From Alphaproteobacteria bacterium (lineage in GTDB: Bacteria; Pseudomonadota; Alphaproteobacteria; CAAHEQ01; UBA3637): 64,000 bases of DNA. The stretch is taken from assembly GCA_045631185.1 (NCBI GenBank), contig JAZQUH010000039.1, positions 75,740 through 139,739 of the forward strand. Direction: 5' to 3'. Below are positions 41,077-59,249 of this stretch, in pieces; the stretch's first letter is position 1, and the number at the start of each line of letters is the position of its first letter. The notes beneath the pieces are model-generated. The model was not told where the DNA came from. It ran no database searches and saw nothing but the letters and a program-made list of their open reading frames with translations. A program made the position numbers and the translations under genes.

Positions 41077-42846
41077 ATGTCAATAACCTATCGTGAACTG
41101 CGTCAAAAATGGTTGGAATTTTTTAAATCAAAAGGGCATGCCGAAATTCCGTCGGCTTCTGTGTTTCCCGAAAATGATGCCACAGTGTTGTTCACGACCG
41201 CCGGTATGCATCCGTTGGTTCCGTATTTGATGGGACAAAAACATCCGGCCGGCAACCGTTTGACGGATATTCAAAAATGTATCCGTACGAATGATATTGA
41301 TTCTGTTGGTGATACCAGCCATTTGACCTTTTTTGAAATGATGGGCAACTGGTCTTTGGGCGATTATTTCAAAAAGGAAATGGTGGCTTGGAGCTTTGAG
41401 TTTTTGACCCAGCATTTGGGATTCAAGCCCGAACAATTGGCGGTTACCTGTTTTAAAGGTGATGAAAACGCCCCGCGTGATGATGAAACGGCTGGGTTTT
41501 GGAAAGAGCAGGGATTAAAAGATAATCAAATTTTCTTTTATGGTGCGGATGATAACTGGTGGGGGTTGGCCGATGGTGGTCCATGCGGTCCGGATACGGA
41601 AATGTTTATTGATAACGGTCAACCGGCATGCGGTGCGGATTGTGGTCCGGCCTGTCATTGTGGTAAGTACACCGAAATTTGGAATGACGTGTTTATGCAA
41701 TATGAAAAAAAATCCGATGGTTCTTTGGTAAAGTTGGCCCAACAAAATGTTGATACAGGTATGGGATTGGAACGCACCTTGGCCTTTATGAACGGTGTCG
41801 GTGATGCTTTTTCAACGGAATTGTTTGCGGGTTTGCGTCAAAAATTGGAAGAATTGTCGGGCAAAAAATATGCCGAAGCATTGGTGCCTTTCCGTAAAGT
41901 ATTGGACCATGTGCGTACATCTGTTTTTATTTTGGGTGATGATAAGCATTTGGCTCCATCCAACACGGACCAAGGATATGTTTTGCGTCGTTTGATTCGT
42001 GTGGCCATTCGTTCGTTAAAGCAATTGGGGATTACGGATTTTGTATTGCCGGCTTTGGCCGAATGTGTTTTGGATCAATACGGTGAATATTATCCTGAAT
42101 TGCAACGCAACCGTGATTTCATTATGACCGAATTGGCCAAAGAAGAACAATTGTTTAACCGTACGATTACGGCCGGCTTAAAGGAAATGGATAAAGTCAT
42201 GGGTCGTGTTCAAAACGGATTGATTGATGGCCAAACAGCATTCCATTTGTACGATACCTATGGTTTTCCGTTGGAATTCACACAACAAATTGCCACCGAA
42301 AACAACTTACAGGTGGATGTGGACGGTTTTAATAAGTGTTTTCAGGCACATCAGGAACTTTCCCGCAAAGGTGCCGAACAAAAATTCAAGGGCGGTTTGG
42401 CCGACCATTCGGAAAAATCGGCCCACTATCACACCGCCACACATATTATGCACGCCATGTTGCGTCAAATGTTTGGTGAAACGGTGGCTCAAAAGGGCAG
42501 TAATATTACGCCTGAACGGATGCGTTTTGACTTTTCCTTTAATCGCAAGATGACACCCGAAGAAGTCAAAGAATTGGAAAATCGTGTGAATGCGGTGATT
42601 GAACAAAAAATCCCTGTGGAATGTGCTGAACGGACTTTGGCCGAAGCCCAAGCCGAAGGCGCGATTGGTTTGTTTGCCCACAAATATGATGCCGAAAAAG
42701 TTAAAGTTTATACCATTGGTTCGGTTTCCAAGGAAGTTTGTGGTGGTCCGCACGCCCAAAATACAGGCGATTTAGGTCACTTCCGTATTTTAAAGGAAGA
42801 ATCTTCATCGGCCGGTGTGCGCCGTATCAAGGCCGTTTTGGAATAA
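41077..42846 (+). CDS. alaS: Alanine--tRNA ligase, short form (589 aa; ends right after editing domain)
   Basis: Class II core FTTAGMHP, EIWNDVFMQY; editing HTATH and CGGPH motifs; no C-Ala domain. Confidence 0.85.
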   Translation: MSITYRELRQKWLEFFKSKGHAEIPSASVFPENDATVLFTTAGMHPLVPYLMGQKHPAGNRLTDIQKCIRTNDIDSVGDTSHLTFFEMMGNWSLGDYFKKEMVAWSFEFLTQHLGFKPEQLAVTCFKGDENAPRDDETAGFWKEQGLKDNQIFFYGADDNWWGLADGGPCGPDTEMFIDNGQPACGADCGPACHCGKYTEIWNDVFMQYEKKSDGSLVKLAQQNVDTGMGLERTLAFMNGVGDAFSTELFAGLRQKLEELSGKKYAEALVPFRKVLDHVRTSVFILGDDKHLAPSNTDQGYVLRRLIRVAIRSLKQLGITDFVLPALAECVLDQYGEYYPELQRNRDFIMTELAKEEQLFNRTITAGLKEMDKVMGRVQNGLIDGQTAFHLYDTYGFPLEFTQQIATENNLQVDVDGFNKCFQAHQELSRKGAEQKFKGGLADHSEKSAHYHTATHIMHAMLRQMFGETVAQKGSNITPERMRFDFSFNRKMTPEEVKELENRVNAVIEQKIPVECAERTLAEAQAEGAIGLFAHKYDAEKVKVYTIGSVSKEVCGGPHAQNTGDLGHFRILKEESSSAGVRRIKAVLE

Positions 42847-42982: not shown

Positions 42983-43321
42983 TTAATAACCACCATAATC
43001 ATTACCTTCGCCTTGAACTCCTGAACCAGTATCAGCAGCGTATTTGACGATATAGTCAGCACAGGCAACAACGGCCACACCAAAGACCAATGCCCACAAC
43101 CATTTCCATTGGATTTTACCCAACAAGGCAGCAGCGGCCATACCAATCAAACCAAAAGCAGCCAAAACATAAAATACCTTTCTGACGTCATCAAAAACGG
43201 ATTGTAAATTATTCACAATCGAACCTAATCCTCCAGCGTCATCTTCAGCCCATGCAGAGCCAACGTAGGTAATTAAGGCAAAAATGGCAACAAAGGCCAT
43301 GACTTTTAATAATTTTTTCAT
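42983..43321 (-). CDS. Small secreted two-TM protein with VirB2/TrbC-pilin-like topology
   Basis: Signal MKKLLKVMAFVAIFALITYVGSAWA|ED; about 25 aa; TM1; KIQWKW; TM2; short Gly/acidic tail; AAAGGAA RBS. Confidence 0.5.
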   Translation of the reverse strand: MKKLLKVMAFVAIFALITYVGSAWAEDDAGGLGSIVNNLQSVFDDVRKVFYVLAAFGLIGMAAAALLGKIQWKWLWALVFGVAVVACADYIVKYAADTGSGVQGEGNDYGGY

Positions 43322-43608
43322 TTTATATTCCTTTCTTTTTTTGTTGATGCATCATTCAAATAAAAGTACAAAATTTATGACGAAAACGATACGTCTTTTT
43401 ATTTTTTTCCTTTACTTTATGACTCCTTATAAGGTTTTACGGTTTGAAACCATTTCAAACCATATCTATATCATAAACAATTTTTTTTCTTTGTCCAGTA
43501 TTTTTTTAAAAAAAAACGAAAAAAACACAAAAAAAGAATTTGTTAATAAAATATTAACTTTTTAGTGTTTATGATAATCACAAGTTTAATCATCGCATAG
43601 GGGAATGC

Positions 43609-44373
43609 ATGAAAAAGTTGTTTGTCGGTTGTATCGCATTTTTTTGGATGTCTTGTGCCGTGGCACAAGATTCGGGAGTGATTGCGGTTGCAGAAGCTGA
43701 TGAATTTTTGGGCCCAACATATGCGATTCCTGATGCTCCTGTTTTTGTAGATTTGCCGTCAGGGGGAGCTTCTAACCGCAATGTCCTGACTGAAATTTTT
43801 GGTTCTGATGCGGTAACCTTAAACGCTAATGATCCAATTGAAACGGTTTCTGGTCAAAATTTTGAACCAACCCCCGGTTTATATCGTCCCAAAAAAAATG
43901 TTTTAACAAAGTTACCGGATTTGCCGGCACCTCAATTGATGTATGAATCTGTTTTGGATACAACAATTACGCCGGTGATTCGAAAATCAGATTATGCGGA
44001 TCGTTTTTTGGAAAGTCTTCAAAATGGAAAGAGGGTCACTTTTTCTGTTCCTCGTGAAATACGTATTTCTTTTTATCCCGGGCAATCTTCTTTGTCGGCT
44101 CAAGCATTAAAGTGGATAAAGGCCTTTGCTTTAAAGGTTCGTAATGATCCACGGTTGGTAATTGAAATTCGTGTTTCAGAAAAAGATTGGTCGTTGCAAA
44201 GCAAACGTGTGGCGTTGATGCTTCAGTCGGTAATGGAACAAGGTGTTTCTCGGCATCAAATTTTTATCTATAAAACAAATCGTTCTTCTGATTCTGTTTT
44301 GTTAGGATATGGTTATAGTGTGGATAAAGAATTGGAAAAAGGTAAAAAAAAGCAAAAAACAATCACTTGGTAA
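43609..44373 (+). CDS. Secreted pilus-operon protein with OmpA/MotB-like C-terminal region (PilL position)
   Basis: Signal peptide ..SCAVA|QD; C-terminus FYPGQSSLSAQALKWIKAFALKV..LVIEIRV..LQSKRVALMLQSVMEQGV resembles OmpA-C pattern. Confidence 0.4.
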   Translation: MKKLFVGCIAFFWMSCAVAQDSGVIAVAEADEFLGPTYAIPDAPVFVDLPSGGASNRNVLTEIFGSDAVTLNANDPIETVSGQNFEPTPGLYRPKKNVLTKLPDLPAPQLMYESVLDTTITPVIRKSDYADRFLESLQNGKRVTFSVPREIRISFYPGQSSLSAQALKWIKAFALKVRNDPRLVIEIRVSEKDWSLQSKRVALMLQSVMEQGVSRHQIFIYKTNRSSDSVLLGYGYSVDKELEKGKKKQKTITW

Positions 44374-44433
44374 AAAAAATACTTGTAATATAAAAAAAAA
44401 GAGTGTATGTTTTTCTAAAACAGGGAGTACAAT

Positions 44434-45129
44434 ATGATTTATAAAAAAGATTTCTTTAAGTTTTTTGTAGTTTCAGGCGTGTTATTGTCTGTGATTTCTG
44501 CTCAGGCTCAGAGTGGTCAGTTTGTTGATTGTTCTCAAGGAGGGGCAAATTGTGATGTGCTTTATGCGACTGATGATGTATTTATAATGCCTGATTGTGT
44601 GGATTGTGTATCAGGTGAAATTCAGGTGGAACCGGCGGTTACAAAGACTTCTTATCAGCCTTTGGCATATTCTATGCCTATAGATAATCAGATGGAAGTT
44701 TTGCCTAATGGTGCTGTGCGTATGACGACAACTCAGGTTTCTGGTGTGCGTTCAGGAGCTAGCGATATTCAAACGACACGTAAGGTAGAAAGAGTTGAAG
44801 AGCGTCGTTTAGGTGGTAAATGGGTAACGCATGATACAAATGAAAAGGTTGCTTTCGGTGATTCTGTTCATGATTGGGATGCTGCCCGTGGAGAAACGTT
44901 GAAATCTTTGTTGACTCAATGGGCTGAAGTATCGGGTTGGACTTTGGTTTGGAAATTGGATCGTGATTATAATTTGGAAGCCGGTGTGGTTTTCCGTGGT
45001 ACATTTACCGAAGTGGCTGGTGCGATTATTCGTACTTTTGCTCGTGCAAAACCAGCCCCTATCGGGACTTTTTATCGTGGTAATCGTGTTTTGGTTGTCA
45101 GCATACAGGAGGACGAGAATGCTCATTAA
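44434..45129 (+). CDS. TcpQ-domain pilus biogenesis protein (R64 PilM/TcpQ-like)
   Basis: Signal peptide; C-terminus ETLKSLLTQWAEVSGWTLVWKLDRDYNLEAGVVFRGTFTEVAGAII typical of TcpQ/PilM family. Confidence 0.6.
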   Translation: MIYKKDFFKFFVVSGVLLSVISAQAQSGQFVDCSQGGANCDVLYATDDVFIMPDCVDCVSGEIQVEPAVTKTSYQPLAYSMPIDNQMEVLPNGAVRMTTTQVSGVRSGASDIQTTRKVERVEERRLGGKWVTHDTNEKVAFGDSVHDWDAARGETLKSLLTQWAEVSGWTLVWKLDRDYNLEAGVVFRGTFTEVAGAIIRTFARAKPAPIGTFYRGNRVLVVSIQEDENAH

Positions 45130-46738
45130 AAAATTATCCATTGCTTTGTTTGCGGGGTGTTTTGCTTTGGCTGGATGTAATCAATATGTAGTTGAAGGAA
45201 ATAAACGCATAGAAGAAACTCTATCCCGTGTGGAAGAGTATAAAGAAATTTCTCAGATTCCGGATTTGCCTGAACCCACTGATACAGTGCGTATGCAAAA
45301 TGATATTTATTTGGGTAATCAAAGTATCAAGATTATGGAAGGGGATTCATTGCCCGCGTGGTTGGAAAAAGAAGATGGTATTACAATGGCAGTGGCAGAA
45401 GATGCTAAGTTGGCGGATATCTTGCAAGAAATTTCTGACATTACAGGGATGGATATTCGTTTGGATGATTTGCGTATGGAAAATGCAATACCAGAAGACG
45501 CAGTTCCTTTGAAATATTCGGGATCTTTAAGCGGTCTTTTGAATTATTTATCTAATCGATACAGTGTGTATTGGCGTTATAAAGATGGTGTAATTTCTTT
45601 CTTTACTAAGGAAACTCGTATTTTTACAATTTATGCTTTGCCGACCACTTCTACTATGCAGGCCAGTTTGAGTGGTGCCACAATGGGCGAAGGTGGTGGT
45701 GGCACTTCGTCTTCAAACTTGAGTGTTAATGCTGAATTGGATGTTTGGAGCAGCATTGAAGAAGGAGTTAAACAGGTTGTCGGTGAAAATGGTCAGTTGT
45801 CTTTTTCAAAGACTGCTGGTACGATTTCTGTAACAGCTTCGCCTTATATTGTGCGTAAGGTTGCTGCTTATGTGGCCAATTGGAATGAAAAATTATCACG
45901 TCAGGTGGCAATTACAGTACGTATTTTACAGGTGACCATTTCCGATGATAATAATTATGGTTTGAATTTGAATGCTATTTTTGATAACGGAAATATTTCA
46001 GCCACTTTTTCAACAGCTGCAACGTTGGGGACAAGTGGTCTTTTGTCGATGGCTTTGATAAAACCTGATAGCAAATTTAAACCAGAGGCTATTATTCAGG
46101 CCTTTTCAACCCAAGGAAAAACTCGGTTAGTGACCAGTTCAACCGTGACAACGCTGAATAATAAACTAGCACCGATTCAAATTTCAACATCTCAAGGGTA
46201 TGTGAAAGAAATTACGGTTACTACAACGGGTAGTGGTGAGGATAAAAGTTCCGAAGTTCAAATGGATACAGATGATTTGAGCTATGGTTTTACAATGGAA
46301 GTTTTACCGCGTATCTTGGATCATGGTCGTTTGATTTTGTTGTTTAACTTGTCTATTACAGATTTGTTGGAATTGAAGAATTTTACGGCTGGTTCAAACG
46401 ATAAAGGTTCGAATGATTCTTCTTCCGAAACAGAGGGTGATTCTTCTGAAGGTGAAGACGATGATAATGAGTCTGAAATGAAAACAGTTCAGTTGCCGAC
46501 AATGAGAAATCGTGGTTTTGTTCAGGAAATTGCAATGCGCTCAGGACAAACACTGGTCTTAACAGGTTTTGAAGATATCAATGAATCAACAAAATCTGCC
46601 GGTGTGGGTAAGGCTAAAATGGGTATTTTGGGTGGTCAGGCGGTAACTGCAATGGTACGGAACGTTTTGGTTATCTTAGTTACACCAGAAGTGTTACAAT
46701 CGCCTTTGTCTCAAGAAGCCTTAATGCGCGATTATTAA
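45119..46738 (+). CDS. Lipoprotein secretin (PilN-family type IVb pilus outer-membrane channel)
   Basis: Start MLIKKLSIALFAGCFALAGC (lipobox) with AGGAGGA RBS, overlapping upstream stop; secretin C-domain (TTLNNKLAPIQIS.., SYGFTMEVLPRIL.., VLVILVTPEVL). Confidence 0.8.
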   Translation: MLIKKLSIALFAGCFALAGCNQYVVEGNKRIEETLSRVEEYKEISQIPDLPEPTDTVRMQNDIYLGNQSIKIMEGDSLPAWLEKEDGITMAVAEDAKLADILQEISDITGMDIRLDDLRMENAIPEDAVPLKYSGSLSGLLNYLSNRYSVYWRYKDGVISFFTKETRIFTIYALPTTSTMQASLSGATMGEGGGGTSSSNLSVNAELDVWSSIEEGVKQVVGENGQLSFSKTAGTISVTASPYIVRKVAAYVANWNEKLSRQVAITVRILQVTISDDNNYGLNLNAIFDNGNISATFSTAATLGTSGLLSMALIKPDSKFKPEAIIQAFSTQGKTRLVTSSTVTTLNNKLAPIQISTSQGYVKEITVTTTGSGEDKSSEVQMDTDDLSYGFTMEVLPRILDHGRLILLFNLSITDLLELKNFTAGSNDKGSNDSSSETEGDSSEGEDDDNESEMKTVQLPTMRNRGFVQEIAMRSGQTLVLTGFEDINESTKSAGVGKAKMGILGGQAVTAMVRNVLVILVTPEVLQSPLSQEALMRDY

Positions 46739-46748
46739 AGGAGTCCGT

Positions 46749-48107
46749 ATGGAAAAAGAACAAACCAATCTGATTGATCAGCTGGAAACAACGAAACAAG
46801 AAGTTGTTAAGCGTTCTTCAACGGGTATTGTGACGGTTGATGGTCAAAAATATGCCGTTGGTTTGGTTTGGCAGCCGGTTCAAAATTTGGACGATCCGAT
46901 TGTTGAAATTCGGGAATCTGCAGAAAGTGAAGCAGGGGCTGACTTATACTGTTTAAGACCGGCTGCAACACCTCAATATGGTATAGGTTATAGTGAATTG
47001 GGACATCGTGACGGTATCCCTTCCTTGGCCGCATCTGTTGCGACTGCATTGACTGATCGTACTTCTGTTTGTGCTGTTTTCCGTGTTGATGAAGGATGGT
47101 GGTTGGTGGCCATCCGTAATGATTTGATTTTAGCGGAAGAAGATATTGTTTTTGACAACGAAGTAGAAGCTCAGCGTGCCTATGCTGCCATGATGGCTGT
47201 GCCTGATTGGGACTTGCGTATTGTTCCGCCAGAATGGAATATCGAAGGTGTAGAACGCCAAGATTTGGCAAAACTTGTTGCAGGAACAAGAAAGGTACGT
47301 CTGCAGCAAATTAATGCTCAAGTTCGGACAAAGTTTTTGTTATTTTTTGCGATTGCAATTGTTTTAGGTGTTGCTTATTTAATTTGGTTTTTAATCAAGA
47401 CATTAACTGGGATAATAGGGGAACCGACTCCACTTCCGGGAGACGGCGATAGCGGCGGGATAATTACTACTCCTGTTGTTCCTACTCCAAGAGGACCTGA
47501 ACCATGGGATGTTGTTCCTGATATGAATGCCTTTTTTCAACAATGTTGGACATCTGTGTATCAGGTTCAAAGCATTACTATTCCTGGTTGGACTATGGGA
47601 ACAATACAGTGTACTCCAAAACAGTTGACAACTTCTTGGCGAATGACTGATCCAAAACTTGGGCCTTTGTCTTTGGCTCGTTTTGGTATTGATTCTTATA
47701 ATTTTGATAAAGATAATTTTGAAATGACTATAAAAAGTGATGGGACTTCTGCAGATGGTCTGATGAAGTTTGATGAACCTCATATTCCGACGGTTTCTTC
47801 TGTCCCCAGAATGACAGCAAAAGAGTTAGAAGAAGATGTACGTGAAATTCAATTGGCAACAGGGCTTACTTTCCAATTCAATAGACAAACTTTATTGTCG
47901 CCCCCTAATCGGGCTGATGGTACACGTCCACCTGGTCAAAAATCATATGTATACTATTCTTTTACGGTTTTATCGCCATATCCACCTATGGAATGGAAAC
48001 CGTTTTTTGAAAAATTTTCTGGTTTAGAACTAATTAAACTAGAATATACACCAGCTGGTGGTGCAACTAACAAATGGAAATATGAGGGAAGAATCTATGC
48101 AAAATAA
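46749..48107 (+). CDS. PilO (R64/PilO2-type pilin accessory protein)-like
   Basis: N-terminus TVDGQKYAVGLVWQPVQ..., central TM, size about 450 aa, position after the secretin. Confidence 0.6.
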   Translation: MEKEQTNLIDQLETTKQEVVKRSSTGIVTVDGQKYAVGLVWQPVQNLDDPIVEIRESAESEAGADLYCLRPAATPQYGIGYSELGHRDGIPSLAASVATALTDRTSVCAVFRVDEGWWLVAIRNDLILAEEDIVFDNEVEAQRAYAAMMAVPDWDLRIVPPEWNIEGVERQDLAKLVAGTRKVRLQQINAQVRTKFLLFFAIAIVLGVAYLIWFLIKTLTGIIGEPTPLPGDGDSGGIITTPVVPTPRGPEPWDVVPDMNAFFQQCWTSVYQVQSITIPGWTMGTIQCTPKQLTTSWRMTDPKLGPLSLARFGIDSYNFDKDNFEMTIKSDGTSADGLMKFDEPHIPTVSSVPRMTAKELEEDVREIQLATGLTFQFNRQTLLSPPNRADGTRPPGQKSYVYYSFTVLSPYPPMEWKPFFEKFSGLELIKLEYTPAGGATNKWKYEGRIYAK

Positions 48108-48987
48108 AACTTTTTTAAAAACCTTTTTTGTCTTTTCTTTTTTGGCCTTACCTGCGTTTGCTCAAGTGGATGAGTTGCCTGAAGAATATAAAACGCCAAC
48201 AATAGATTTGTCGGACAAGAAAACATTGGATTTTTCTGACCGTACTTCTATGGATACCTTGGAGTTAACGCCGTTGCCGGGGAATAATGAAACTGATATT
48301 ACAGGACCTCAAGAATATACGGAATCTGTTTCTTCTAATGATTATCCAAGTGAACAGTTGCGAGGTCGTTTAAATTTGGATGTTTTTGAAGAAATGGCTC
48401 AAATAGAAAGGGATACAGCCTTTTTAAAATTACATATTGAAAAAGCGAAAGTAAAAAATGAATTAGAAAATTTGCGTGCAACATACCGTCAAAATCGATT
48501 GGATGAAATTGCCAAAAGAGAGGATGTTGTTCGTACGCGTATTCAATGGTGGCAAGAACAGGAAAAATTGCGTTTAGAGGCTGAAAAACAACGGCAAGAA
48601 GCTGAGGAGTTGAAAACTCAAAGAGCTGAAGCAGAGGCTTTGAAGCAGCAGTTGGCTGAAGCGCAAAAAGCTGTAGAGGAAGCTCAAGCTCAGGCTCAGG
48701 CGGAAGCTTTGAAGGTGCAAGAACAACTTCAAAATCAGAAACAAGAACCTGTATTTGAACAGGGAAATGATGCTGAATTAGAACCTGTAATTTCTCATCC
48801 GACATATGTTTTGGTTGGTGTAAAGGGGACACGAGGAAATTTAGAAGCAAAAGTGAAAAATATAACTTCTGAACAGATCACTACCGTTCGTTCTGGTGAT
48901 GATTTATTTGGTGAAACTGTTGTTTCTGTTACGCCGGATAGTGTTATTTTGCTTCGTGAAGGCAGCGAATATGAAATTAAATTTTAA
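48097..48987 (+). CDS. PilP-like pilot/periplasmic protein with long coiled coil
   Basis: Start MQNKTFLKTFFVFSFLALPAFA overlapping pilO stop; E/A/Q coiled coil; C-terminal beta domain YVLVGVKG..VILLREGSEYEIKF. Confidence 0.55.
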   Translation: MQNKTFLKTFFVFSFLALPAFAQVDELPEEYKTPTIDLSDKKTLDFSDRTSMDTLELTPLPGNNETDITGPQEYTESVSSNDYPSEQLRGRLNLDVFEEMAQIERDTAFLKLHIEKAKVKNELENLRATYRQNRLDEIAKREDVVRTRIQWWQEQEKLRLEAEKQRQEAEELKTQRAEAEALKQQLAEAQKAVEEAQAQAQAEALKVQEQLQNQKQEPVFEQGNDAELEPVISHPTYVLVGVKGTRGNLEAKVKNITSEQITTVRSGDDLFGETVVSVTPDSVILLREGSEYEIKF

Positions 48988-49002
48988 AAATTTGGTGCTG
49001 AG

Positions 49003-50952
49003 ATGGACGAAAATAAATTAGCTGATTCGAATAATTTTCAAGCTCAACAGATTTCATCTGGTGATATTCTTTCACCACCAATAATTCCTGGGCAGATGTC
49101 ATCTGAATTGAATACTGATGAATCTCAGATAGAAGGATCTGTTGCTGGAACGGATTTTTCTGCAGCTGATATTTTGGCTCCTCGTCAGAATTTATCAGAG
49201 TCTTTAAATACATTGAAAGAATTTTCACAAACGGACCAAACTCAACCAGTTCAAGAAGTTAAGCCAGAAGAAGTTACCGCTCAAACAAAATTGACTGTAG
49301 AGGAAAATCCACAAGCAGAACAACAATCTGCCCCATCAGAATTGTATTCTTATGAAGATCCAAATGATCATAGTTCTGTTAGATTTTTAAAAGATTTGTA
49401 TGATAATTCAAATGAATGTATGACTTCAGCAGCTGGTTCTTTTCCTGTCAATGAAGAAACTCGTAAATTATTGGCTTTATTCTCCAATGGTCGTTTTTTT
49501 GTGGTGGAGGATAAAAAGTATGATGGTCGAGTTTTGGGTTTTGAATACTTGGCCAAAAAAAGGCGTTTGCAGATTTCTGATCCAGAGTATGTAACAGCTG
49601 CCGAACTGTTGGCTATTTATGGTTATGCAGATCAAATTCATACGGCGACAGATTCAATCAGTACGGAAGAGGCTCAACGTCAAACTCGTATGCAACGAGA
49701 TTTTGTGACGGTTATTTCGCGTGCGGCTATTAACCATGTTTCTGATATTCATATTGTTGTGGCAGATCATACAACAGTTATGTTCCGTGTGAATGGTTTG
49801 ATGCAGACGGAAATGGAATATAATAAAGAATGGGGTGAAAGTTTTGTGCGTGCAGCCTTTGCATCAGCAGACGTTTCGGATTCCAACTATGCTCAAAATG
49901 AATATCAGGCGGCCCAAAAATTGGGACGTACGCCATTGCGTGGTTCGGGTGGGCGCTTGGTATTGCCCAAATCCGTTTTGGGTTTGCGTTTACAATTTAA
50001 CCCGATTGCTTTTGGTACGCGTTATGTGATTATCCGTTTGTTATATGCAGATGAAAATGCATCTACGGGCGATCAGGCGCTTGAAAGTTTGGGTTTTTCT
50101 GATTACGATATTGAAAAATTCAGATATTTGCGCTCATTACCAACGGGAATTGTGGTTGTCTCGGGTCCAACAGGTTCAGGAAAATCTACAACCTTACAGC
50201 GTAACATGATTTCCATGTTAAAGGAACGTAACTTTGAAACCAACCTGATTACCGTGGAAGATCCGCCTGAATATCCGATTCCTGGAGCTCGACAGATGCC
50301 GGTGACCAATGCGGGGGTTGAAGAAGCTAAAGATCGTGAATTCACCAAAGCATTATCGGCAGCATTGCGTTCTGACCCTGACTCTTTAATGATCGGTGAA
50401 ATTCGTACCTTATCAGCGGCTGATTTGGCTTTTCGTGGTGCTTTATCCGGTCATAATGTGTGGACCACCTTGCATGCCAATACGGCGTCGGCGGTATTAT
50501 TGCGTTTAAAGGATATAGGCGTAGAAGATTTTAAATTACAAGATCCTTCTATTATGCGTGGTATGTTAGCTCAGCGCCTATTCAGAAAAGTTTGTCCACA
50601 TTGTCGAGTTTCGACGAAAAACCAATTACAACATCCTGCGGTTCAAAGATTACGTGAAGCCTATGGGGATATAGGATTAGAAAATACTTATTTGCGTGGA
50701 GCAGGTTGTGAGGAATGTGATTTTCGTGGTGTCAGCGGTCGTTCGGCCGTTGCTGAATTTATTTTGCCAGATACAACCTTTTTGGATTTAATGCTAAAGG
50801 GTGAAACACAAAAAGCGATGAATTATTGGGTAACAGATTTACATGGTCGTACCTTGAAAGAGGGAGCTATGGAGCACATGTTTAAAGGTGAATTTGATAT
50901 TGAAGAAGTAGAGCGATGGTGTGGTCATCTTAATCAACCGAATTTGATTTAA
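49003..50952 (+). CDS. GspE/PilB-family assembly ATPase (R64 PilQ-like) with about 230-aa N-terminal extension
   Basis: SDIHIV, Walker A SGPTGSGKSTT, SDPDSLMIGEIR, GHNVWTTLHAN, CPHC...CEEC tetracysteine. Confidence 0.9.
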   Translation: MDENKLADSNNFQAQQISSGDILSPPIIPGQMSSELNTDESQIEGSVAGTDFSAADILAPRQNLSESLNTLKEFSQTDQTQPVQEVKPEEVTAQTKLTVEENPQAEQQSAPSELYSYEDPNDHSSVRFLKDLYDNSNECMTSAAGSFPVNEETRKLLALFSNGRFFVVEDKKYDGRVLGFEYLAKKRRLQISDPEYVTAAELLAIYGYADQIHTATDSISTEEAQRQTRMQRDFVTVISRAAINHVSDIHIVVADHTTVMFRVNGLMQTEMEYNKEWGESFVRAAFASADVSDSNYAQNEYQAAQKLGRTPLRGSGGRLVLPKSVLGLRLQFNPIAFGTRYVIIRLLYADENASTGDQALESLGFSDYDIEKFRYLRSLPTGIVVVSGPTGSGKSTTLQRNMISMLKERNFETNLITVEDPPEYPIPGARQMPVTNAGVEEAKDREFTKALSAALRSDPDSLMIGEIRTLSAADLAFRGALSGHNVWTTLHANTASAVLLRLKDIGVEDFKLQDPSIMRGMLAQRLFRKVCPHCRVSTKNQLQHPAVQRLREAYGDIGLENTYLRGAGCEECDFRGVSGRSAVAEFILPDTTFLDLMLKGETQKAMNYWVTDLHGRTLKEGAMEHMFKGEFDIEEVERWCGHLNQPNLI

Positions 50953-50964
50953 GGAAGGTGTAAT

Positions 50965-52086
50965 ATGGCACAAGGAAAAAATGAGGTAAAATTAAAAGGC
51001 GGTGCGTTGGAATCAATTAATATGGCTTATGCCCAATTAATGGTTCGTTTGCATGCAACAGATCGATTAGAGATGTATCGTAAATTGGCGGCCCTTTTGA
51101 AAAACAGATTTTCTTTGATGGATGCTTTGGAACGTTTATATCAAATTGCTTCAAAAGACGGAAAAAGTCCTTCAGATACGATGGCCATGGCAGTAGCCAA
51201 TTGGATGTTAAAAATTCGAAATGGTCAGACTTTTTCGGAAGCATTACATGGTTGGGCTCCTTCTACCGAATTGTTATTGTTATCAGTGGGTGATGTTGCT
51301 AATTTGGAATTAGCCTTGGAACATACTGTACGCGTCGTTGAAGGCATGAACAAAATGCGCTCTTTGGTTTGGGGTGCTGTGGCTTATCCTTTGTTTTTGT
51401 TGTGTATGGTGGCTTTATTGATTTGGGGTGTGGCCAAGTTCATGGTGCCACCGATGAAGGAAGCCGTGCCGAATTTGGAATGGCAAGGGGTTGCAGGCTC
51501 ATTAATTGATTTGTCTAATTTTGTTGACCAGCACCCGATATTATTATTTTCTATTGTACCTGTAATTACTATCTGTATAATGATTACATTTCCATATTGG
51601 AAGGGTGCTGGTCGGGCAGCATTTGATAAATTTCCGCCATGGTCCATTTATCGTGGTTTTGTGGGGGTCAGCTGGTTGTTGGCTTTATCGGCTTTGGTGC
51701 GTGCTGGTATGCCTGTTTCCAAGGCTGTTCGTTCGCTACTGGGTGATGATTCAACTCCTTATTTAAAGTTTCGTTTAAATCGCACATTATTATTTATTAG
51801 TAATGGTGATAACTTAGGCGAAGCCTTATATCATACCCGCTTGGGATTTCCAGATGAAGAAGTAATAGGCGATTTACGGATTTATTCTGAGTTGGATACA
51901 TTTCCTGAAGCTTTGGAAAACTTGGCAACAGGTTGGTTGGAATCATCGGTTCGCACTATCGGGAAACAGGCGGAAATTTTAAACTCGATTGCCATTTTGG
52001 CCATTGCCGCTGTCATCGGTTGGGTGGTTTGGGGAACCTTTGCCATGCAGGATCAAATGGTCAGCGGTATGGGCTTGGGCGGTTAG
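50965..52086 (+). CDS. GspF/PilC-family inner-membrane platform protein (R64 PilR-like)
   Basis: 373 aa, duplicated cytoplasmic domain + 3 TM layout; AAGGAAGG RBS. Confidence 0.8.
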   Translation: MAQGKNEVKLKGGALESINMAYAQLMVRLHATDRLEMYRKLAALLKNRFSLMDALERLYQIASKDGKSPSDTMAMAVANWMLKIRNGQTFSEALHGWAPSTELLLLSVGDVANLELALEHTVRVVEGMNKMRSLVWGAVAYPLFLLCMVALLIWGVAKFMVPPMKEAVPNLEWQGVAGSLIDLSNFVDQHPILLFSIVPVITICIMITFPYWKGAGRAAFDKFPPWSIYRGFVGVSWLLALSALVRAGMPVSKAVRSLLGDDSTPYLKFRLNRTLLFISNGDNLGEALYHTRLGFPDEEVIGDLRIYSELDTFPEALENLATGWLESSVRTIGKQAEILNSIAILAIAAVIGWVVWGTFAMQDQMVSGMGLGG

Positions 52087-52271: not shown

Positions 52272-52520
52272 CTATTTTAAAATAAGGTTTAACAAAGCCA
52301 TAATCAGGGCAGTGCCTGTTGTGGCCACGATAATGGTAATTAAATTTTTAATCGGTGTAATTTCATTTTTTAAAACAAACTCTTGTTTTAAATTGGCATA
52401 TAGTGTGTCAACCTGTTGTTTGATTTCACCAAGTTGTTGTTGCAATAATGAAACGGACGCCATCAATTTGCCGATTTCTATGGATAGACTGGGGGCAGGC
52501 ATATCAGACTCCTTAAACAT
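52272..52520 (-). CDS. Tail-anchored coiled-coil protein (holin/spanin-like)
   Basis: 82 aa; coiled coil then C-terminal TM ITIIVATTGTALIMALLNLIL; 8-nt overlap with hydrolase gene. Confidence 0.45.
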   Translation of the reverse strand: MFKESDMPAPSLSIEIGKLMASVSLLQQQLGEIKQQVDTLYANLKQEFVLKNEITPIKNLITIIVATTGTALIMALLNLILK

Positions 52521-52917
52521 TTTTATAAAATAAATGATTGCCGATTTGGGCGCATGGGATTAAATGTCTGGCCCACAGGGGATGACATTCAAAGGTGTGA
52601 TAGTGCGTGGCCCCGTTTGTGTTATCCTTTAATACACCGGCTAAAGCTCTTTTAACGATTCTTTGGCAAATTTGATAAACGGGATTTTCGGATAAATCGC
52701 CTGTTAAAATTTTGTAATTGACATCATTGTGATTCCAACATGAAAATTGTTTGGGCTTTAAACATACTTCACGGATATTTTTGCCCCACCACATCGGTTG
52801 GATCAGATTCATTTTGACACGATTTAAAATAACATTGGCAACGGCTTCTTGACCGGCCAAAGATTCGCCACGGGCTTCACCGTAAATTGTTTTTGAAAAG
52901 ATTTCTTCTTCTGTCAT
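52513..52917 (-). CDS. SleB-type cell wall hydrolase (endolysin)
   Basis: TIYGEARGE..AVANVILNRV, QFSCWN, THYH..IGNHLFY (Hydrolase_2 pattern). Confidence 0.8.
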   Translation of the reverse strand: MTEEEIFSKTIYGEARGESLAGQEAVANVILNRVKMNLIQPMWWGKNIREVCLKPKQFSCWNHNDVNYKILTGDLSENPVYQICQRIVKRALAGVLKDNTNGATHYHTFECHPLWARHLIPCAQIGNHLFYKNV

Positions 52918-52929
52918 TTATTATTCTCC

Positions 52930-54321
52930 TTATCGCCACAGGGGGCGTTGTTTATAAAAAAGCGGTAAAGTTTTCAATCGAACGGGTTCGCTTAACAAAC
53001 ATCCCGCCACGGCATCCAAACCATCATCATGGGTATTTCCGGTTGAATTAAAATCTTGCATTTCCCGAATAAAAGGTGTTTTTAAAACACTTTCATGGGC
53101 ATATAGGTTGCCGTTTAACAAAGGTGGCTCTATGGCCCCTAAAATGCGTTCGGTTTTATTTTGTCGGGCTGTTTCTTCCAATACGGCAATGGCCAAGCGT
53201 TGGCGGGATAATTCCTGACGCAACAGGGCCGGTAAGAATCGCCCGATACCGTTTGTTTCCAAATGAATGGCCGGCAACATCAATTCTTTTAAAAACTGAA
53301 CAACTTTTTGGCATTGATAAGAGGTTGCTTCTTCATTTTCGGGAACGGTTAAATATAATAATTGATGAATGTAATGAAAACCAGTTGCATCCGAAAAAAC
53401 GCCCGCTACGACACTTTTATCGCCACCGACTTTACCAAAGGCCGGATCCCACCAGGCACATCCCGAAACCAATCGCCGAGAATTTAATTTTAAGACGGCC
53501 TGACCATTGGCTTCGGTATAATCCAGATTATCCGAATAAATTTTTAATTTTCTTTCATCCAAGCGTTGTTTATCAAAGGCCACCGCCTCTAACATCATTT
53601 GGCTTAAAAATTTAAAACGTGGGGTTGTTTGTTTTATTTGATTTATTTTATCCACAGAAAATCTTTCGGGCCAAGTGGCCAAGCCTGATGCATCCATAAT
53701 CGGTAATTTTAAAAGTTTCCAATTTGGTTGATTGTAAATACTTTGGCGTGTATGGGGTGTGCCGATATACAAAATCAATCCGTCGGGTGACAGGATATAA
53801 TCCAATTCGGCCAGTTTTTGTTTTAAATCTTCACGTTTGCCGGCTGTATCACATGTTTTGGGTACTTCCACATCATCACATAAAATGATATCAGCCCGAC
53901 ATCCTGTGATATTGGCACTTAAACCACGGGCCAAAACGGACGGATCACGACCACCGGCGGGACGTTGAACGGTCAATTTATCACCGGCCCATTCTTCGGC
54001 TTTTTCGGGCTTTAATCCATGACACAGAGGATGGCGTTCCAAAATATGTTTGATATGACGCACCATTTTTTGCGCCAAAGCGTGATCGGCCGATAAAACC
54101 AATAATCTTAAATTGGGATTTTGCGTTAAAACCCACGCACAAAACAAACCGACGATGGTTGATTTTCCTGAATTGCGAAAGGCCATTAAAACGGCCTGTC
54201 TGCGTCCTTGTGAAAAATAAAGTTCAGACAAAAAACGGCCCATTATTTTGTGGTGATTTGGAATGGATAAATTTTGGATTTTATCCCAAATCCATACGAA
54301 TTCCAGAAATGTCGTTTTCAT
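52930..54321 (-). CDS. Phage terminase large subunit
   Basis: Walker A RNSGKST, Walker B IILCDDVE, C-terminal nuclease HDDGLDA. Confidence 0.85.
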   Translation of the reverse strand: MKTTFLEFVWIWDKIQNLSIPNHHKIMGRFLSELYFSQGRRQAVLMAFRNSGKSTIVGLFCAWVLTQNPNLRLLVLSADHALAQKMVRHIKHILERHPLCHGLKPEKAEEWAGDKLTVQRPAGGRDPSVLARGLSANITGCRADIILCDDVEVPKTCDTAGKREDLKQKLAELDYILSPDGLILYIGTPHTRQSIYNQPNWKLLKLPIMDASGLATWPERFSVDKINQIKQTTPRFKFLSQMMLEAVAFDKQRLDERKLKIYSDNLDYTEANGQAVLKLNSRRLVSGCAWWDPAFGKVGGDKSVVAGVFSDATGFHYIHQLLYLTVPENEEATSYQCQKVVQFLKELMLPAIHLETNGIGRFLPALLRQELSRQRLAIAVLEETARQNKTERILGAIEPPLLNGNLYAHESVLKTPFIREMQDFNSTGNTHDDGLDAVAGCLLSEPVRLKTLPLFYKQRPLWR

Positions 54322-54571
54322 CTTTTAAATCCTCTTTGGCCTGATGAATCAAATCCAATAAATCGGTTTGATTGGTGGGTTGTTTTTTGGGTGCTATATC
54401 CAAAATTTTAATCAATAAAGCAATATGCAACAGTGCCGATTTACATGCACTGTGATAGGCGTTAAAATCTTTGGCATTCATGGGGCAATCGGCATTGGCA
54501 AAGGATTGATATGTTTGAACGGCTTTTTCCAAAAAAGGTTTCATTTTTTTCAGATAGGCCTTCATACGCAC
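54281..54571 (-). CDS. Phage hypothetical protein (possible small terminase, unproven)
   Basis: ORF-track start is GTG; first ATG at 54565; helical 94-96 aa; overlaps TerL start. Confidence 0.35.
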   Translation of the reverse strand: MRMKAYLKKMKPFLEKAVQTYQSFANADCPMNAKDFNAYHSACKSALLHIALLIKILDIAPKKQPTNQTDLLDLIHQAKEDLKDENDISGIRMDLG

Positions 54572-55048
54572 CTACTTAATCATTGTACGGCTGATACCGC
54601 CGGCCAAATTACCCAAAGTGCCATACATATTATTTTGGCTGGCCTGATTGATGCTGTTTAATTTTAACAGGTTTGTACCGGTGGAATGATTCAAGCTGTT
54701 TAACAGGGCATCCGATGATATTTTGGCCTGATTGACCAAGTATTTATCCTCCATATCATATTCCCTTTGCATGGCGTTTAAATAAGTTTGCCCCGTTCCC
54801 GATTGACCGGATAATCCCGACGCCCCCAGTTTGGCTTTATAACTGGCCTGTTGTTGAGCCAACAAATTTTTGTTTCTTCGTTGTCTTTCATTTAACGCCA
54901 ATTGTGCTTGTTTATCCTGTAAAGCGGCCTGTTCGGCGGCATAGGCATTGGAACGTTTGATGGCTTTTTTTTGACGATCGGCATTGGCTTTTGTATAATA
55001 AGCCGAACCCAAGATTGAGACGGCTGTGGCAATAACTGCTGCTTCCAT
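54572..55048 (-). CDS. Phage internal-virion-like protein, Q/N-rich with N-terminal anchor
   Basis: 158 aa; MEAAVIATAVSILGSAYY hydrophobic N-terminus; AGGAGG RBS. Confidence 0.4.
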   Translation of the reverse strand: MEAAVIATAVSILGSAYYTKANADRQKKAIKRSNAYAAEQAALQDKQAQLALNERQRRNKNLLAQQQASYKAKLGASGLSGQSGTGQTYLNAMQREYDMEDKYLVNQAKISSDALLNSLNHSTGTNLLKLNSINQASQNNMYGTLGNLAGGISRTMIK

Positions 55049-55049
55049 A

Positions 55050-56975
55050 TTATCCTCCTATTTTAATATCACTGATAACCGAAACCAATTGAAAAGGCAG
55101 AGGTTGCTTGCCTTGAATAATCCATAAAGGTTCGGTCGGATTTCTTTTCCATCCCAATCCCCGTACAACAATATCTGTTGTTTTGGTGCTGGGGGCACTG
55201 TCCAAAATATAATTATTCAGACTTTCGTTCATTTCCTGATGTAATCCGCAACCGGTGTCTATTTCAAAACTTTTGGTATTGATTAAACGAAATACGCCCC
55301 TGACAAAGCGACATGATGCCACCGGTGCAGAACCGTTGCTGGCACCGGCTGAGGCGGGCAAGGGAACAATTTTATGCGAAAAGCCTAAACCGTATTGTAG
55401 TTTTTGGGCATTGATATTTAACCGAACCGTTCCGGTTGAAATATCCTGATTTTCCTGAACACGTCCATCGGCCAATAATTGCACATTCCATCCGTTTAAA
55501 TAATCCAAACCGTCCCAATCCATTTGTGGCGTTTGGCTTGTTTGATTTTGGGCCAAATCCATATACATTTCATCATCCATTTTTTCCAAATAAAATTTAT
55601 CTTTTCTTTGTGTAATGAAATAGGTGGATTTCCCTGAAACGGCAACATTTAAAAATTTGCCTTGCGTTTTATGACGTGTCCAACTTTGGATATCTTCACC
55701 CCTAAAACTGGTCAAAGCACTTAATGAACCGTCCTGCATGATGATATAGGCCTGACGTTGATATTTATCATAGGCCATATCCACCGGATGATTGATGACA
55801 TGGTGGGCCAGCAAAGATAAATCGGTAGCCTGATAGATGCCTTCCAAATCCGAAAACAAAAATTCACGGATTTCTTTGCCATTGGCACTGGCAAAAATGG
55901 TGGCACCGTCAATGCCCACCGGCGGGATATAATTTTCATCAGGTGAGCCCACCTGAGTTTGGCGGTGTAATTGAATGGATTCGGGGGTTAAAGGATTACC
56001 CGATACCATCCATTCGGCACCGGTTGTAAAAACCTGTAAATGCCGACCGGAAAACAAGGCGGTGATTTTATTACCCTGATTGGACATCAACGAAAAACAG
56101 ATGGCTTCGTTATCCAGTGCTGTTCCTTCTTCAAAGTTACCCAAGTCATTACTTTGGCTGAACCATAATGTATTGGGTAAACTTTTGGATCCGCCAAAAA
56201 CCAATCGGGATTGATAAGTGGCAACCGTTGCCGGCCATCCGCGTTCATCGCTCCATGCAACTTCACCCCAATATCTTGTGGCTTCTAATTTTGTTTCTTT
56301 TGTGGCATCTTCATCATCCAACAATTTTTTTAAAACGGTTGCATTGGCATGTTGATTATCACTGACGGCTGTGATTTTGACATAACCGGCGCCTAATTTG
56401 AAAACCTGATTCAAATGTTTGCTTTCAAATAAAGGTGCATTGGCTGTTAAAGTAACCGAATCCAAACATCCGCTGGATGAAATGGATATGTTTTTATCAT
56501 TAAAACGGTGATAGGGGATATGCATATATCCGTTTTGGTTTAAAAATTCAAAGCTTTTTATTTGCCATTGACCGTTATCCAATTTGATATGTTGTGGGGC
56601 AAAATCGGGATGCACGATAATCACGCCATCCGATAGGCAAGCCCAACGAATTTGGCGAATATCTTCATCATCCCAGGGGGTTGTGAGAGTGCTAATCAAA
56701 ATATCGTTTTGAAAAATCTTCGTTTGATTATTTTGTATAACCAATAAATAAGTATGTGAACTATCTTGCTCATAACCGATTAAACGTCCTTTTGTTTGTA
56801 ATTCAAAAATGTATTTTAATCCGGGTCGGCGATGAACACCGCCGGTGGGTTCAATAAAAACATTTTCCAAAATTTGTGCACCGTTATGATAGCTGGTTAA
56901 ATCCACCCGTCCCAATAAATCGGGAGATAATTCACCGGCCGTGAAATTTGTTTTGGCGGTAAACATATTTGTCAT
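55050..56975 (-). CDS. Podovirus tail tubular protein B / nozzle-like
   Basis: 641 aa following a 189-aa protein after capsid (T7 gp11/gp12 order); N-terminus FTAGELSPDLLGRVDLTSYHNGAQ; ATGA overlap upstream. Confidence 0.5.
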   Translation of the reverse strand: MTNMFTAKTNFTAGELSPDLLGRVDLTSYHNGAQILENVFIEPTGGVHRRPGLKYIFELQTKGRLIGYEQDSSHTYLLVIQNNQTKIFQNDILISTLTTPWDDEDIRQIRWACLSDGVIIVHPDFAPQHIKLDNGQWQIKSFEFLNQNGYMHIPYHRFNDKNISISSSGCLDSVTLTANAPLFESKHLNQVFKLGAGYVKITAVSDNQHANATVLKKLLDDEDATKETKLEATRYWGEVAWSDERGWPATVATYQSRLVFGGSKSLPNTLWFSQSNDLGNFEEGTALDNEAICFSLMSNQGNKITALFSGRHLQVFTTGAEWMVSGNPLTPESIQLHRQTQVGSPDENYIPPVGIDGATIFASANGKEIREFLFSDLEGIYQATDLSLLAHHVINHPVDMAYDKYQRQAYIIMQDGSLSALTSFRGEDIQSWTRHKTQGKFLNVAVSGKSTYFITQRKDKFYLEKMDDEMYMDLAQNQTSQTPQMDWDGLDYLNGWNVQLLADGRVQENQDISTGTVRLNINAQKLQYGLGFSHKIVPLPASAGASNGSAPVASCRFVRGVFRLINTKSFEIDTGCGLHQEMNESLNNYILDSAPSTKTTDIVVRGLGWKRNPTEPLWIIQGKQPLPFQLVSVISDIKIGG

Positions 56976-57541
56976 GCGCGTACCTCAATCAAAGAAAAAT
57001 CCTGAAAGCAGGGGTTTATGGATTGTTGTGAATCCACTAATCTGGCCTGTTTTAATTCTTCGGCGGCAATTTTACGCATATAATCCGTGCGCGTTGTGCT
57101 TTCGGTTAAAGGCAGACAAAATTCGCTGGCCAACTGGGTGATAAAGGCCTTTACAAAAAAAGGCGGAAAAGTGCTTTCATCGGGTTTTTCAATATAATTT
57201 AAAATAACTTTTGGTGTATTGGCGTACAGGCATTTACCCACAATTTTATATTGTAATCCCGAACTTTTGATATTTTGTCCGGCCGATAAAATCCGCAAAC
57301 AATTATTGGGTAATTGAAAGGCGTATTGGTAATCCGAAACGGGTTTGTTTTCCAATCGGGCCAAATTTTTTTGTTTTAATGCAAAACGCCACGGATAGGA
57401 TGCCAATAAGTTTTCCAAGGTTGGTTGATACAATTGGGATGCCACGGTGGATTCACAGGACGTTTCATCAAAAGAAGAAATACTGTTGGCCCCCAATTCC
57501 ACCAAAGCACGAGAGCATAAATCAATGTTTGTGTATGACAT
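56972..57541 (-). CDS. Podovirus tail tubular protein A / adaptor-like
   Basis: Start moved to MSYTNIDL (AAAGGAAC RBS); 189 aa; position after the capsid terminator. Confidence 0.45.
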   Translation of the reverse strand: MSYTNIDLCSRALVELGANSISSFDETSCESTVASQLYQPTLENLLASYPWRFALKQKNLARLENKPVSDYQYAFQLPNNCLRILSAGQNIKSSGLQYKIVGKCLYANTPKVILNYIEKPDESTFPPFFVKAFITQLASEFCLPLTESTTRTDYMRKIAAEELKQARLVDSQQSINPCFQDFSLIEVRA

Positions 57542-57558
57542 ATTGTTCCTTTTGTATG

Positions 57559-57592: not shown

Positions 57593-57611
57593 CAAATGGT
57601 AAAGATTTTTT

Positions 57612-59233: not shown

Positions 59234-59249
59234 AAATAATTCCTTTTGT

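Follow-up and report, generated by a model that had tools for sequence, protein, structure and literature searches.

What does a pilus assembly operon assemble when no pilin gene accompanies it? The question is raised by seven coupled genes at positions 43609-52086 of the stretch analysed here (the window: 64,000 nt of contig JAZQUH010000039.1 from an alphaproteobacterial genome assembly, GCA_045631185.1). A preliminary description, made from the letters alone, took them for an R64/toxin-coregulated pilus (TCP)-type type IVb pilus operon that lacks pilin, prepilin peptidase and adhesin genes in cis. Almost all known type IVb pili come from enteric Gammaproteobacteria, where plasmids and pathogenicity islands encode them and where they drive colonisation and conjugation. 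Beyond Gammaproteobacteria, a 2019 survey recorded them in Acidithiobacillia and Nitrospirae only (PMC6668835). Our literature search returned no description of such a pilus system in gut Alphaproteobacteria. We conclude that the operon probably encodes a type IVb assembly machine resembling the bundle-forming pilus (BFP) of enteropathogenic Escherichia coli (EPEC), with bundlin-like pilins encoded in trans, and that it is chromosomal and inherited within its clade.

The seven open reading frames (ORFs) are intact, lie on the + strand and are tightly coupled, as first described. Two pairs overlap by 11 nt: g2 and g3 (g3 ATG at 45119, g2 stop at 45127-45129), and g4 and g5 (g5 ATG at 48097, g4 stop at 48105-48107). 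The remaining intergenic gaps are 10-60 nt.

43609-44373, + strand: g1, secreted protein with a Sec signal peptide, a variable N-terminal region and a conserved C-terminal domain predicted to have the OmpA-C/Pal/MotB fold (about residues 130-240; AlphaFold (AF2) model and Foldseek)
44434-45129, + strand: g2, TcpQ/BfpG-domain periplasmic protein, secretin partner (PF10671, E 4e-18)
45119-46738, + strand: g3, PilN/BfpB-type lipoprotein secretin with the lipobox ...FALAGC (PF00263)
46749-48107, + strand: g4, PilO2/BfpC bitopic inner-membrane assembly protein (PAP_PilO PF06864, E 2e-21, full length)
48097-48987, + strand: g5, secreted protein in the PilP/BfpU position that combines a conserved coiled coil and an E/K/A/Q-rich spacer, which varies, with a beta domain of about 60 aa at the C-terminus (alignment)
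49003-50952, + strand: g6, BfpD-like assembly ATPase of the GspE family, in which about 115 aa form a disordered N-terminal extension (T2SSE, E 1e-64)
50965-52086, + strand: g7, GspF-family inner-membrane platform, BfpE/PilR-like (T2SSF, two repeats, E 1e-21)

The TcpQ, secretin, PilO2, GspE and GspF assignments of the preliminary description are borne out by Pfam and NCBIfam models, with g3 slightly under the cut-off of the PilN model TIGR02520 (252 vs 288 bits). PilO2/BfpC (PF06864) has been described as a component of type IVb assembly (PMC3984277). All four proteins that could be searched in the PDB have a BFP component as their closest solved homolog: g3 matches BfpB (9u5s_A, E 7e-49), g2 the BfpG chain of the BfpB-BfpG complex (9u5s_R, E 1.6e-12), g4 the N-domain of BfpC (3vhj, E 4e-5) and g6 BfpD (8dze, E 1e-86). 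The motifs of g6 are intact, with the Walker A motif GPTGSGKS at residue 388, the Asp box DPDSLMIGEIR, the His box GHNVWTTLHAN and the tetracysteine CPHC..CEEC. The operon contains the traits of the type IVb class, namely a lipoprotein secretin, its adjacent TcpQ/BfpG partner, PilO2/BfpC, and a GspE ATPase with a GspF platform. A pilin with a class III signal peptide is encoded in trans (22177-23727). The trait that is missing is the gathering of all components in one locus, as pilin and peptidase lie outside it in the window and in the closer relatives.

The first and fifth genes needed other evidence. The Pfam search gave no match for g1. Its AF2 model, built from an alignment with 31 database homologs, is confident over the C-terminal 110 aa (pLDDT 83-94), and Foldseek against the PDB returns OmpA-C/MotB/Pal folds (E 4e-5, probability 1.0, TM up to 0.66 for Pal), so that the OmpA-C-like call made from the letters holds. 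Another match of the model is to the Legionella Dot/Icm type IV secretion system (T4SS), in an outer-membrane-cap chain (9ngu, E 1.6e-4), and profile matches to Pal and an OmpA domain are weak. A g1 homolog is the first gene in 79 related loci, where it varies from 213 to 799 aa, with low-complexity spacers that vary around the conserved core. We regard g1 as a putative peptidoglycan anchor. For g5, a proposed PilP likeness is partly upheld: its last ~55 aa weakly resemble the C-terminus of R64 PilP (hhalign, 58% probability, E 1e-4), while its match to TIGR03021 stays under the cut-off (E 0.003). Against the BfpU-position protein of a BFP-like plasmid operon, hhalign gave 7.5% probability, which is not significant. 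The coiled coil of g5 occupies 48400-48759, as described.

Several of these proteins carry insertions that had been regarded as unusual additions. They are clade-wide features of variable length, not peculiarities of this genome. The acidic Ser/Asp/Glu loop of g3 (46391-46477) translates exactly to the peptide quoted in the preliminary description; its length varies across the clade, and it is missing in one deep relative (L081) and in the BFP-like secretin. The extension of g6, put at about 230 aa, is half as long: only residues 1-115 are compositionally disordered, and the BfpD alignment places query residue 134 opposite BfpD residue 18. Extension lengths in the clade span about 0 to about +420 aa, with Walker A anywhere from residue 296 to 716.

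Relatives were collected by a scan of species-representative genomes, which gave 79 species-level loci with PilO2 identities of 34-71%. Locus comparisons and counts below refer to 85 related loci, taken with 10 kb on either side of the operon, plus the contigs L088 and L089; g1-g7 were mapped across loci with HMMs. Nearly all of the 79 loci are titled uncultured Alphaproteobacteria, from human gut, rumen or other animal gut where a source is named. We take the clade to be, probably, GTDB order RF32. More than 170 homologs of g4 come from uncultured metagenome-assembled genomes (MAGs), and where NCBI names them, the name is 'type 4b pilus protein PilO2 [Alphaproteobacteria bacterium]'. Four operon carriers (L024, L067, L068, L083) are filed under Lactobacillales, Holdemanella or Limosilactobacillus bins, which probably reflects bin contamination or mislabelling. 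Every complete locus among the 79 species-level ones (about 80 species) keeps g1-g7 in the same order, and the gene lengths fit those of orthologs. For g1-g7 and the neighbouring virB2 gene, the window was compared with three relatives at dS ~1, near saturation; dN/dS is 0.06-0.32 for all eight genes. Because of this invariant order and purifying selection, the operon is a maintained system and not a remnant.

Which known system is closest? A tblastn search against plasmids, with the secretin as query, gave two comparators: the IncI1 PilN family (about 26% identity over 70% of the query) and a BFP-like operon on the E. coli plasmid p786605_3 (CP091397.1). The latter encodes, in BFP order, a bundlin-like pilin, TcpQ, secretin, PilO2, a small protein, ATPase, platform, second ATPase, peptidase and transglycosylase. 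In phmmer comparisons, the BFP-like proteins score about twice as high as their R64 counterparts: 217 vs 127 bits for the secretin, 307 vs 135 for the ATPase, 233 vs 113 for the platform (R64 PilR) and 55 vs 23 for PilO. The type IVb machine of the preliminary description is upheld, while its nearest system, judged by the PDB matches and these scores, is the BFP of EPEC and not R64.

The likeness extends to gene order. In BFP (bfpA-G-B-C-U-D-E-F-P-H-I-J-K-L), the run bfpG-B-C-U-D-E corresponds to g2-g7, with G, B, C, D and E matched by sequence and U by position only, and the pilins of the clade are bundlin-like. However, BFP starts with the pilin gene bfpA, where the OmpA-C-fold g1 stands here, and its operon includes bfpF (retraction ATPase), bfpP (peptidase), bfpH (transglycosylase) and bfpI-L, none of which is in this locus. 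The BFP pilin begins GLSLIES, in contrast to GRSMxEML in the clade. The present system also differs in being chromosomal and alphaproteobacterial, in its dispersed and often modular pilins and in its link to a VirB T4SS. R64/IncI1 (pilI-pilV) and the PAPI-1-like integrative conjugative elements (ICEs) have in common with it the order PilN secretin, PilO2, PilP, PilQ ATPase and PilR platform, as well as a genetic association with a T4SS; in R64 PilL, only the TcpQ-like C-terminus is common with g2. Unlike R64, the locus has no PilM, PilS, PilT, PilU, PilV or shufflon in cis, it does not lie on a plasmid or a recognisable ICE, and its associated T4SS is VirB-type (VirB2/3/4) instead of I-type or GI-type. 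With R64 PilT, PilU and PilV as phmmer queries, no match was found in the window or any locus; PilM has no homolog, and R64 PilS gave three marginal matches only, to pilin-like ORFs in L040, L068 and L069.

As had been noted for this genome, g7 is not followed by a gene for a pilin, a prepilin peptidase or a PilV-like protein, and the same is true of the closer relatives. Deeper relatives reveal the expected substrates. In eight of them (L029, L062-L065, L068, L069, L084), 1-4 tandem pilin genes lie 3' of g7 on the same strand, starting 40-300 nt after it. Their products have 144-195 aa, except for one of 472 aa in L062, and all begin with ...G↓RSM(I/V)EMLGVLAI(I/V)GVLS (arrow, predicted cleavage site), with Glu at +5 and a C-terminal Cys pair. 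A profile of the clade pilins, built without any E. coli sequence, matches the solved pilin bundlin across its globular domain (1zwt, E 1.9e-7); it also matches TcpA (E 2e-4) and Salmonella PilS (E 7e-3). A motif scan of the window then locates a protein of the same kind, so the absence noted in the preliminary description holds in cis only:

22177-23727, + strand: trans-encoded modular type IVb pilin of 516 aa, class III signal MQNIKTNETG↓RSMVEMLGVLAVIGVLS, about 20 kb upstream of the operon

Its signal reads G↓RSMVE, again with Glu at +5. A bundlin-like module (residue 1 to about 150, with Cys116-Cys135) is followed by a Cys-rich C-terminal extension of about 380 aa. Residues 4-135 match the pilins encoded after g7 in L065 and L084 (phmmer, E 2e-17). 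In the AF2 model an N-terminal helix (12-62) leads to a beta-sheet head, with pLDDT 82-94 for residues 30-200; the extension has no Pfam match and is modelled with low confidence. From its sequence, this protein is a candidate for both substrate and adhesin of the machine.

The window pilin belongs to a wider family. This family is large and conserved: 408 word-indexed matches were obtained, and at E <= 1e-3 it comprises 4315 representative clusters. Most members have 250-550 aa, and some are short (146-161 aa). Paralogs of the window pilin (P0122-P0137) are at least about 90% identical over the first ~180 aa, which cover the pilin module and a short Cys-containing linker, and then fall abruptly to background. 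P0122 shows the reverse, a divergent pilin module joined to a C-terminal domain that is 83-100% identical. The pattern suggests gene conversion of the constant module together with shuffling of the C-terminal ones, some of which are discoidin-like. One paralog seen in its context stands alone among housekeeping genes. By alignment, the family appears to consist of modular pilins in which a constant module carries exchanged C-terminal modules.

This architecture recalls CofB, TcpB and the PilV shufflon of R64. The R64 adhesin likewise joins a constant part to variable C-terminal parts, which are varied by DNA inversion, in contrast to the separate paralogous genes seen here. TCP and CFA/III/Longus have a TcpQ-domain protein with a lipoprotein secretin (TcpQ-TcpC) and large pilins of ~420-520 aa (TcpB/CofB), in which a pilin module precedes extra domains as in the 516-aa protein; TCP is not known to have a dedicated retraction ATPase. 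Their operons, however, encode pilin, minor pilin and peptidase and have no PilO2-family protein in the matching position, and the C-terminal domains of the present pilins are Cys-rich, unrelated to theirs by sequence and without a Pfam match. Streptococcus sanguinis PilB, also a pilin module fused to a C-terminal adhesion module, documents that modular pilins can act as adhesins (PMC8179133). It differs from the repertoire described here, which has many genes per genome with a near-identical ~180-aa module and unrelated C-termini, and which belongs to a diderm host with a type IVb machine.

A second large pilin-like class occurs in two deeper relatives (L062, 17914-19626, 570 aa; L081, 16145-19219, 1024 aa), with the N-termini G↓SLMVEVLAVLGL and G↓ALMVEAIALLGL. 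Each gene is followed by one for a membrane protein of 261-290 aa (L062, 19639-20424; L081, 19232-20104). In L081 the pilin-like gene lies directly 3' of g7, and the class has no homolog in the window. These proteins may represent a minor-pilin or tip complex.

Several observations weigh against a BFP-like pilus machine with trans-encoded pilins. No A24 prepilin peptidase was found by Pfam, phmmer or motif searches in the 64-kb window, the 85 loci, L088 or L089, a search that did not extend to whole genomes. Pfam covered 48 window ORFs and, from related loci, two further proteins; R64 PilU and the peptidase of the BFP-like plasmid, used as A24 seeds for phmmer, had no match in window or loci, and a scan for GxGDxK in all ORFs of the 85 loci returned no peptidase. 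The pilin leader is short (about 10 aa) with Arg at +1 (window 22204-22221, pilin residues 10-15), which is atypical for type IVb. In type IVb pilins the leader is usually longer, and position +1 is usually Met, Leu, Val, Ser or Trp. In the window species we identified only long modular pilins, normally minor subunits, and no short gene of major-pilin size. Foldseek of the whole 516-aa model gave no significant match, with weak pilin matches at E >0.8, which leaves sequence profiles and secondary structure as the basis of the pilin assignment. The equivalence of g5 to PilP/BfpU is drawn mainly from gene position, the protein being weakly PilP-like. Finally, the relatives are all uncultured MAGs, and the system is known here from genes alone.

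Arg after the predicted cleavage site (G↓RSMxEML) is found in essentially the whole pilin family. Gly-1 and Glu+5 are strict across thousands of members, from which we infer that prepilin processing occurs; a prepilin peptidase must then presumably be supplied in trans. There is a precedent in the MSH pilus, as MSH loci all lack a peptidase and peptidases are exchangeable between systems (PMC6668835). The MSH assembly locus thus resembles the present one in presumably borrowing the enzyme from elsewhere, but it has another component set (MshE/G/L and others), belongs to another phylogenetic class and contains its pilins. Other accessory genes are also missing. The operon has no second ATPase, peptidase, transglycosylase or minor pilin set. 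A second (retraction) ATPase, a lytic transglycosylase or a PilV homolog was found in neither the window, the 85 loci, L088 nor L089; in phmmer the second ATPase of the plasmid matched only g6, and R64 PilT and the plasmid transglycosylase had no match.

The strongest rival holds that the machine is a secretion or surface-display device similar to a type II secretion system (T2SS). A short pilus or pseudopilus would then export or present the modular GRSMxEML proteins or a soluble cargo (compare TcpF of TCP and CofJ of CFA/III), and no long adhesive pilus would be built. The length of most family members (250-630 aa in the 4315 clusters), the exclusively long paralogs of the window species, the top NCBIfam match of g6 (GspE) and the lack of a retraction ATPase in cis all fit this proposal. 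In addition, type IVb pili are known to secrete proteins via minor pilins (PMC9565799, PMC6048534). However, every part that could be compared with solved structures is nearest to a BFP pilus component and not to a T2SS, the T2SS-specific GspC, L, M and pseudopilin set is absent, and the deeper relatives have pilin genes of ordinary size (144-195 aa) directly after the platform gene. We consider a secretion or display device unlikely.

A gene that the preliminary description had not mentioned is divergent from g1 and separated from it by AT-rich DNA:

42983-43321, - strand: virB2, VirB2/TrbC-type T4SS pilin of 112 aa with a signal peptide and two hydrophobic helices (PF04956, E 2.3e-8)
43322-43608: AT-rich divergent intergenic region of 287 bp between virB2 and g1 (sequence read)

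The protein scores 34.6 bits against PF04956 (cut-off 27.9 bits). In 57 of the 85 loci homologs stand at this place, likewise divergent from g1, in 1-5 tandem copies. In 16 deeper loci, virB2, virB3 and virB4 run in this order away from g1, on the opposite strand to g1-g7 (and the pilin genes where present), so virB2 belongs to a T4SS operon. The window species retains the other two genes as well. Contig L089, from another sample, is 98.1% identical at the nucleotide level to window 53231-64000, which identifies it as the same species, and it extends the right end of the window. About 14 kb downstream of g7 it carries a gene in the VirB3 position and a VirB4 gene (PF03135), whose product is 66% identical to the VirB4 of a deeper relative. 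VirB2/TrbC is thus found together with VirB3 and VirB4, the mark of a VirB-type T4SS. The other core parts, VirB6, VirB8-11 and VirD4, do not occur in the available sequence and may lie scattered over the genome. Because virB3-virB4 and the pilin genes adjoin the operon in deeper relatives and are dispersed here, a once-compact locus of virB2-3-4, machine and pilins appears to have been broken up stepwise in the window lineage, with its pieces persisting.

The intergenic region presumably serves as shared promoter or regulatory DNA for virB2 and the pilus operon; a scan for consensus sigma-70 promoters was uninformative (26 sites vs 25 expected). In one subclade (L028, L034, L036, L042, L043, L045, L046, L060) and also in L005/L033, an OmpR-type response regulator and a HisKA sensor kinase are encoded directly upstream of g1 or virB2, and this pair is often the upstream neighbour in loci without virB2. 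It is a candidate dedicated regulator and is absent from the window.

Linkage to T4SS genes raises the possibility that the operon is cargo of a mobile element (an ICE or a prophage-associated island) encoding a conjugative mating pilus, as in R64 or PAPI-1. Besides virB2, virB3 and virB4, a T7-like phage module abuts the operon, the flanks differ between distant relatives, and the best-known homologs are plasmid-borne. Yet no integrase, relaxase or coupling protein was seen within 10 kb on either side in any Pfam-annotated locus, and the flanks consist of housekeeping genes (smpB, rpsT, alaS, gatCAB, dnaB and others). Synteny upstream of the operon is kept among close relatives, the proteins diverge in a graded manner across ~80 species, as vertical descent predicts, and the GC content of the operon equals that of its neighbourhood. 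Mobile cargo is a most improbable account of these loci. A decaying remnant that has lost its pilin, peptidase and adhesin genes, to which the preliminary description would have pointed in a genome without pilin or peptidase and which the lack of pilin, peptidase, lytic transglycosylase and retraction ATPase genes in cis might suggest, is rejected as scarcely credible in view of the conserved gene order, the dN/dS values, the seven full-length ORFs with intact catalytic motifs and the matching pilins in trans. A chimera in which the VirB2/TrbC pilin is the fibre subunit of the type IVb machine, an idea prompted by virB2 being the most consistently linked small gene, is also rejected and hardly conceivable, because virB3-virB4 adjoin virB2 in relatives, genuine class III pilins are linked to g7 there, and no platform/GspE ATPase pair is known to polymerise VirB2-type pilins.

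How would a BFP-like machine with trans-encoded pilins work? With component functions taken from the homologous BFP, TCP and R64 systems, g3 would form the lipoprotein secretin channel in the outer membrane, bound and stabilised by g2, and g1 may tie the secretin complex to peptidoglycan through its OmpA-C-fold domain. The g4 and g5 proteins would form an inner-membrane and periplasmic alignment complex that links the secretin to the g6-g7 motor, which is predicted to pull processed pilins out of the inner membrane and to polymerise them. The likely substrates are the bundlin-like pilins beginning with the conserved signature, including the modular one at 22177-23727. Pilin genes after the platform gene probably represent the ancestral arrangement, and in the window lineage they would be single genes scattered in the chromosome. 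The pilus probably serves adhesion, with the C-terminal modules as interchangeable adhesins. The divergent pairing with virB2-3-4 suggests that it is co-regulated with the VirB-type T4SS and works alongside it, and the R64 and PAPI-1 pili offer an analogy for a possible role in cell contact. The data establish the gene identities, their conservation under purifying selection and the linkage of the machine to pilin and T4SS genes, whereas filament assembly, adhesion, cooperation with the T4SS and processing in trans are inferred.

A wider proposal, which we put forward only tentatively, is that the machine is a display and assembly platform for a genome-wide, fast-shuffling repertoire of modular pilins, a chromosomal multi-gene counterpart of the R64 shufflon. 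Gene conversion would presumably keep the ~180-aa module at least about 90% identical, so that every paralog fits one machine, and unrelated Cys-rich or lectin-like C-terminal modules would be swapped between genes and species. The platform would be coupled to the scattered VirB T4SS and, in one subclade, to the conserved T7-like particle module, together making up a cell-contact and exchange island. If this is true, such an island would exist in abundant but uncultured gut commensals.

The components themselves are recognisable, and some are already named by NCBI. New are the host clade, the chromosomal fixation, the OmpA-fold first gene, the loss in cis of pilin, peptidase and retraction genes, the dispersed modular pilins and the VirB linkage. 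Throughout a clade of uncultured Alphaproteobacteria from gut and rumen, a BFP-like machine is a fixed part of the chromosome, and it is tied to a very large modular pilin family. Members of that family are good candidates for adhesins with which gut commensals bind hosts or glycans. For annotators the locus is a warning, as an assembly operon that looks like an 'orphan' can work fully when its subunits are encoded in trans. The machine genes, the GRSMxEML signature and the VirB genes offer concrete targets for metatranscriptomics and heterologous expression.

On the 3' side, the operon had been described as ending head-on against a phage lysis cassette. The lysis genes are there; they form the end of a complete T7-like head-tail-terminase-lysis module.

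52272-61811, - strand: T7-like podovirus module with a holin-like ORF, a Hydrolase_2 endolysin, large terminase, gp14-like protein, nozzle, tubular-A-like protein, capsid, scaffold and portal
61961-62596, + strand: S24 repressor-like gene after the module

The module has no recognisable replication genes, RNA polymerase, gp15/gp16 or tail fibre. It recurs in the same order and orientation, convergent on g7, in 10 further species-level loci (PilO2 identity 56-71%), but L001 lacks it. The divergence of its proteins roughly parallels that of the pilus proteins, except in L007, where the phage proteins are 95-97% identical and the pilus proteins 72-90%. The nearest phage portals are those of Pelagibacter podophages (32-33%). 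Instead of a prophage in decay, the module may be a domesticated element similar to a gene transfer agent.

Rfam and tRNA scans of the window gave no matches. The alaS gene (41077-42846) encodes an alanyl-tRNA synthetase of 589 aa with catalytic and editing-SAD domains only; the product in L001 has 591 aa, and the short form without the usual C-terminal region appears conserved between the two. In L089, positions 13168-17763 (about 66.4-71 kb in window coordinates, past the right end of the window) hold the VirB3-position gene, the VirB4 gene and a gene for a 596-aa protein. The first ~386 nt of the latter are 92% identical to window 5800-6185, the start of ORF 5799-6782, and the two form a paralogous pair with a common N-terminus. 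Three further proteins encoded near the locus are of host-interaction type: a Cys-rich secreted protein of 379 aa without a Pfam match (27380-28519), a Sel1-repeat protein (1651-3069) and a 185-aa ORF with a faint ankyrin match (33663-34220).

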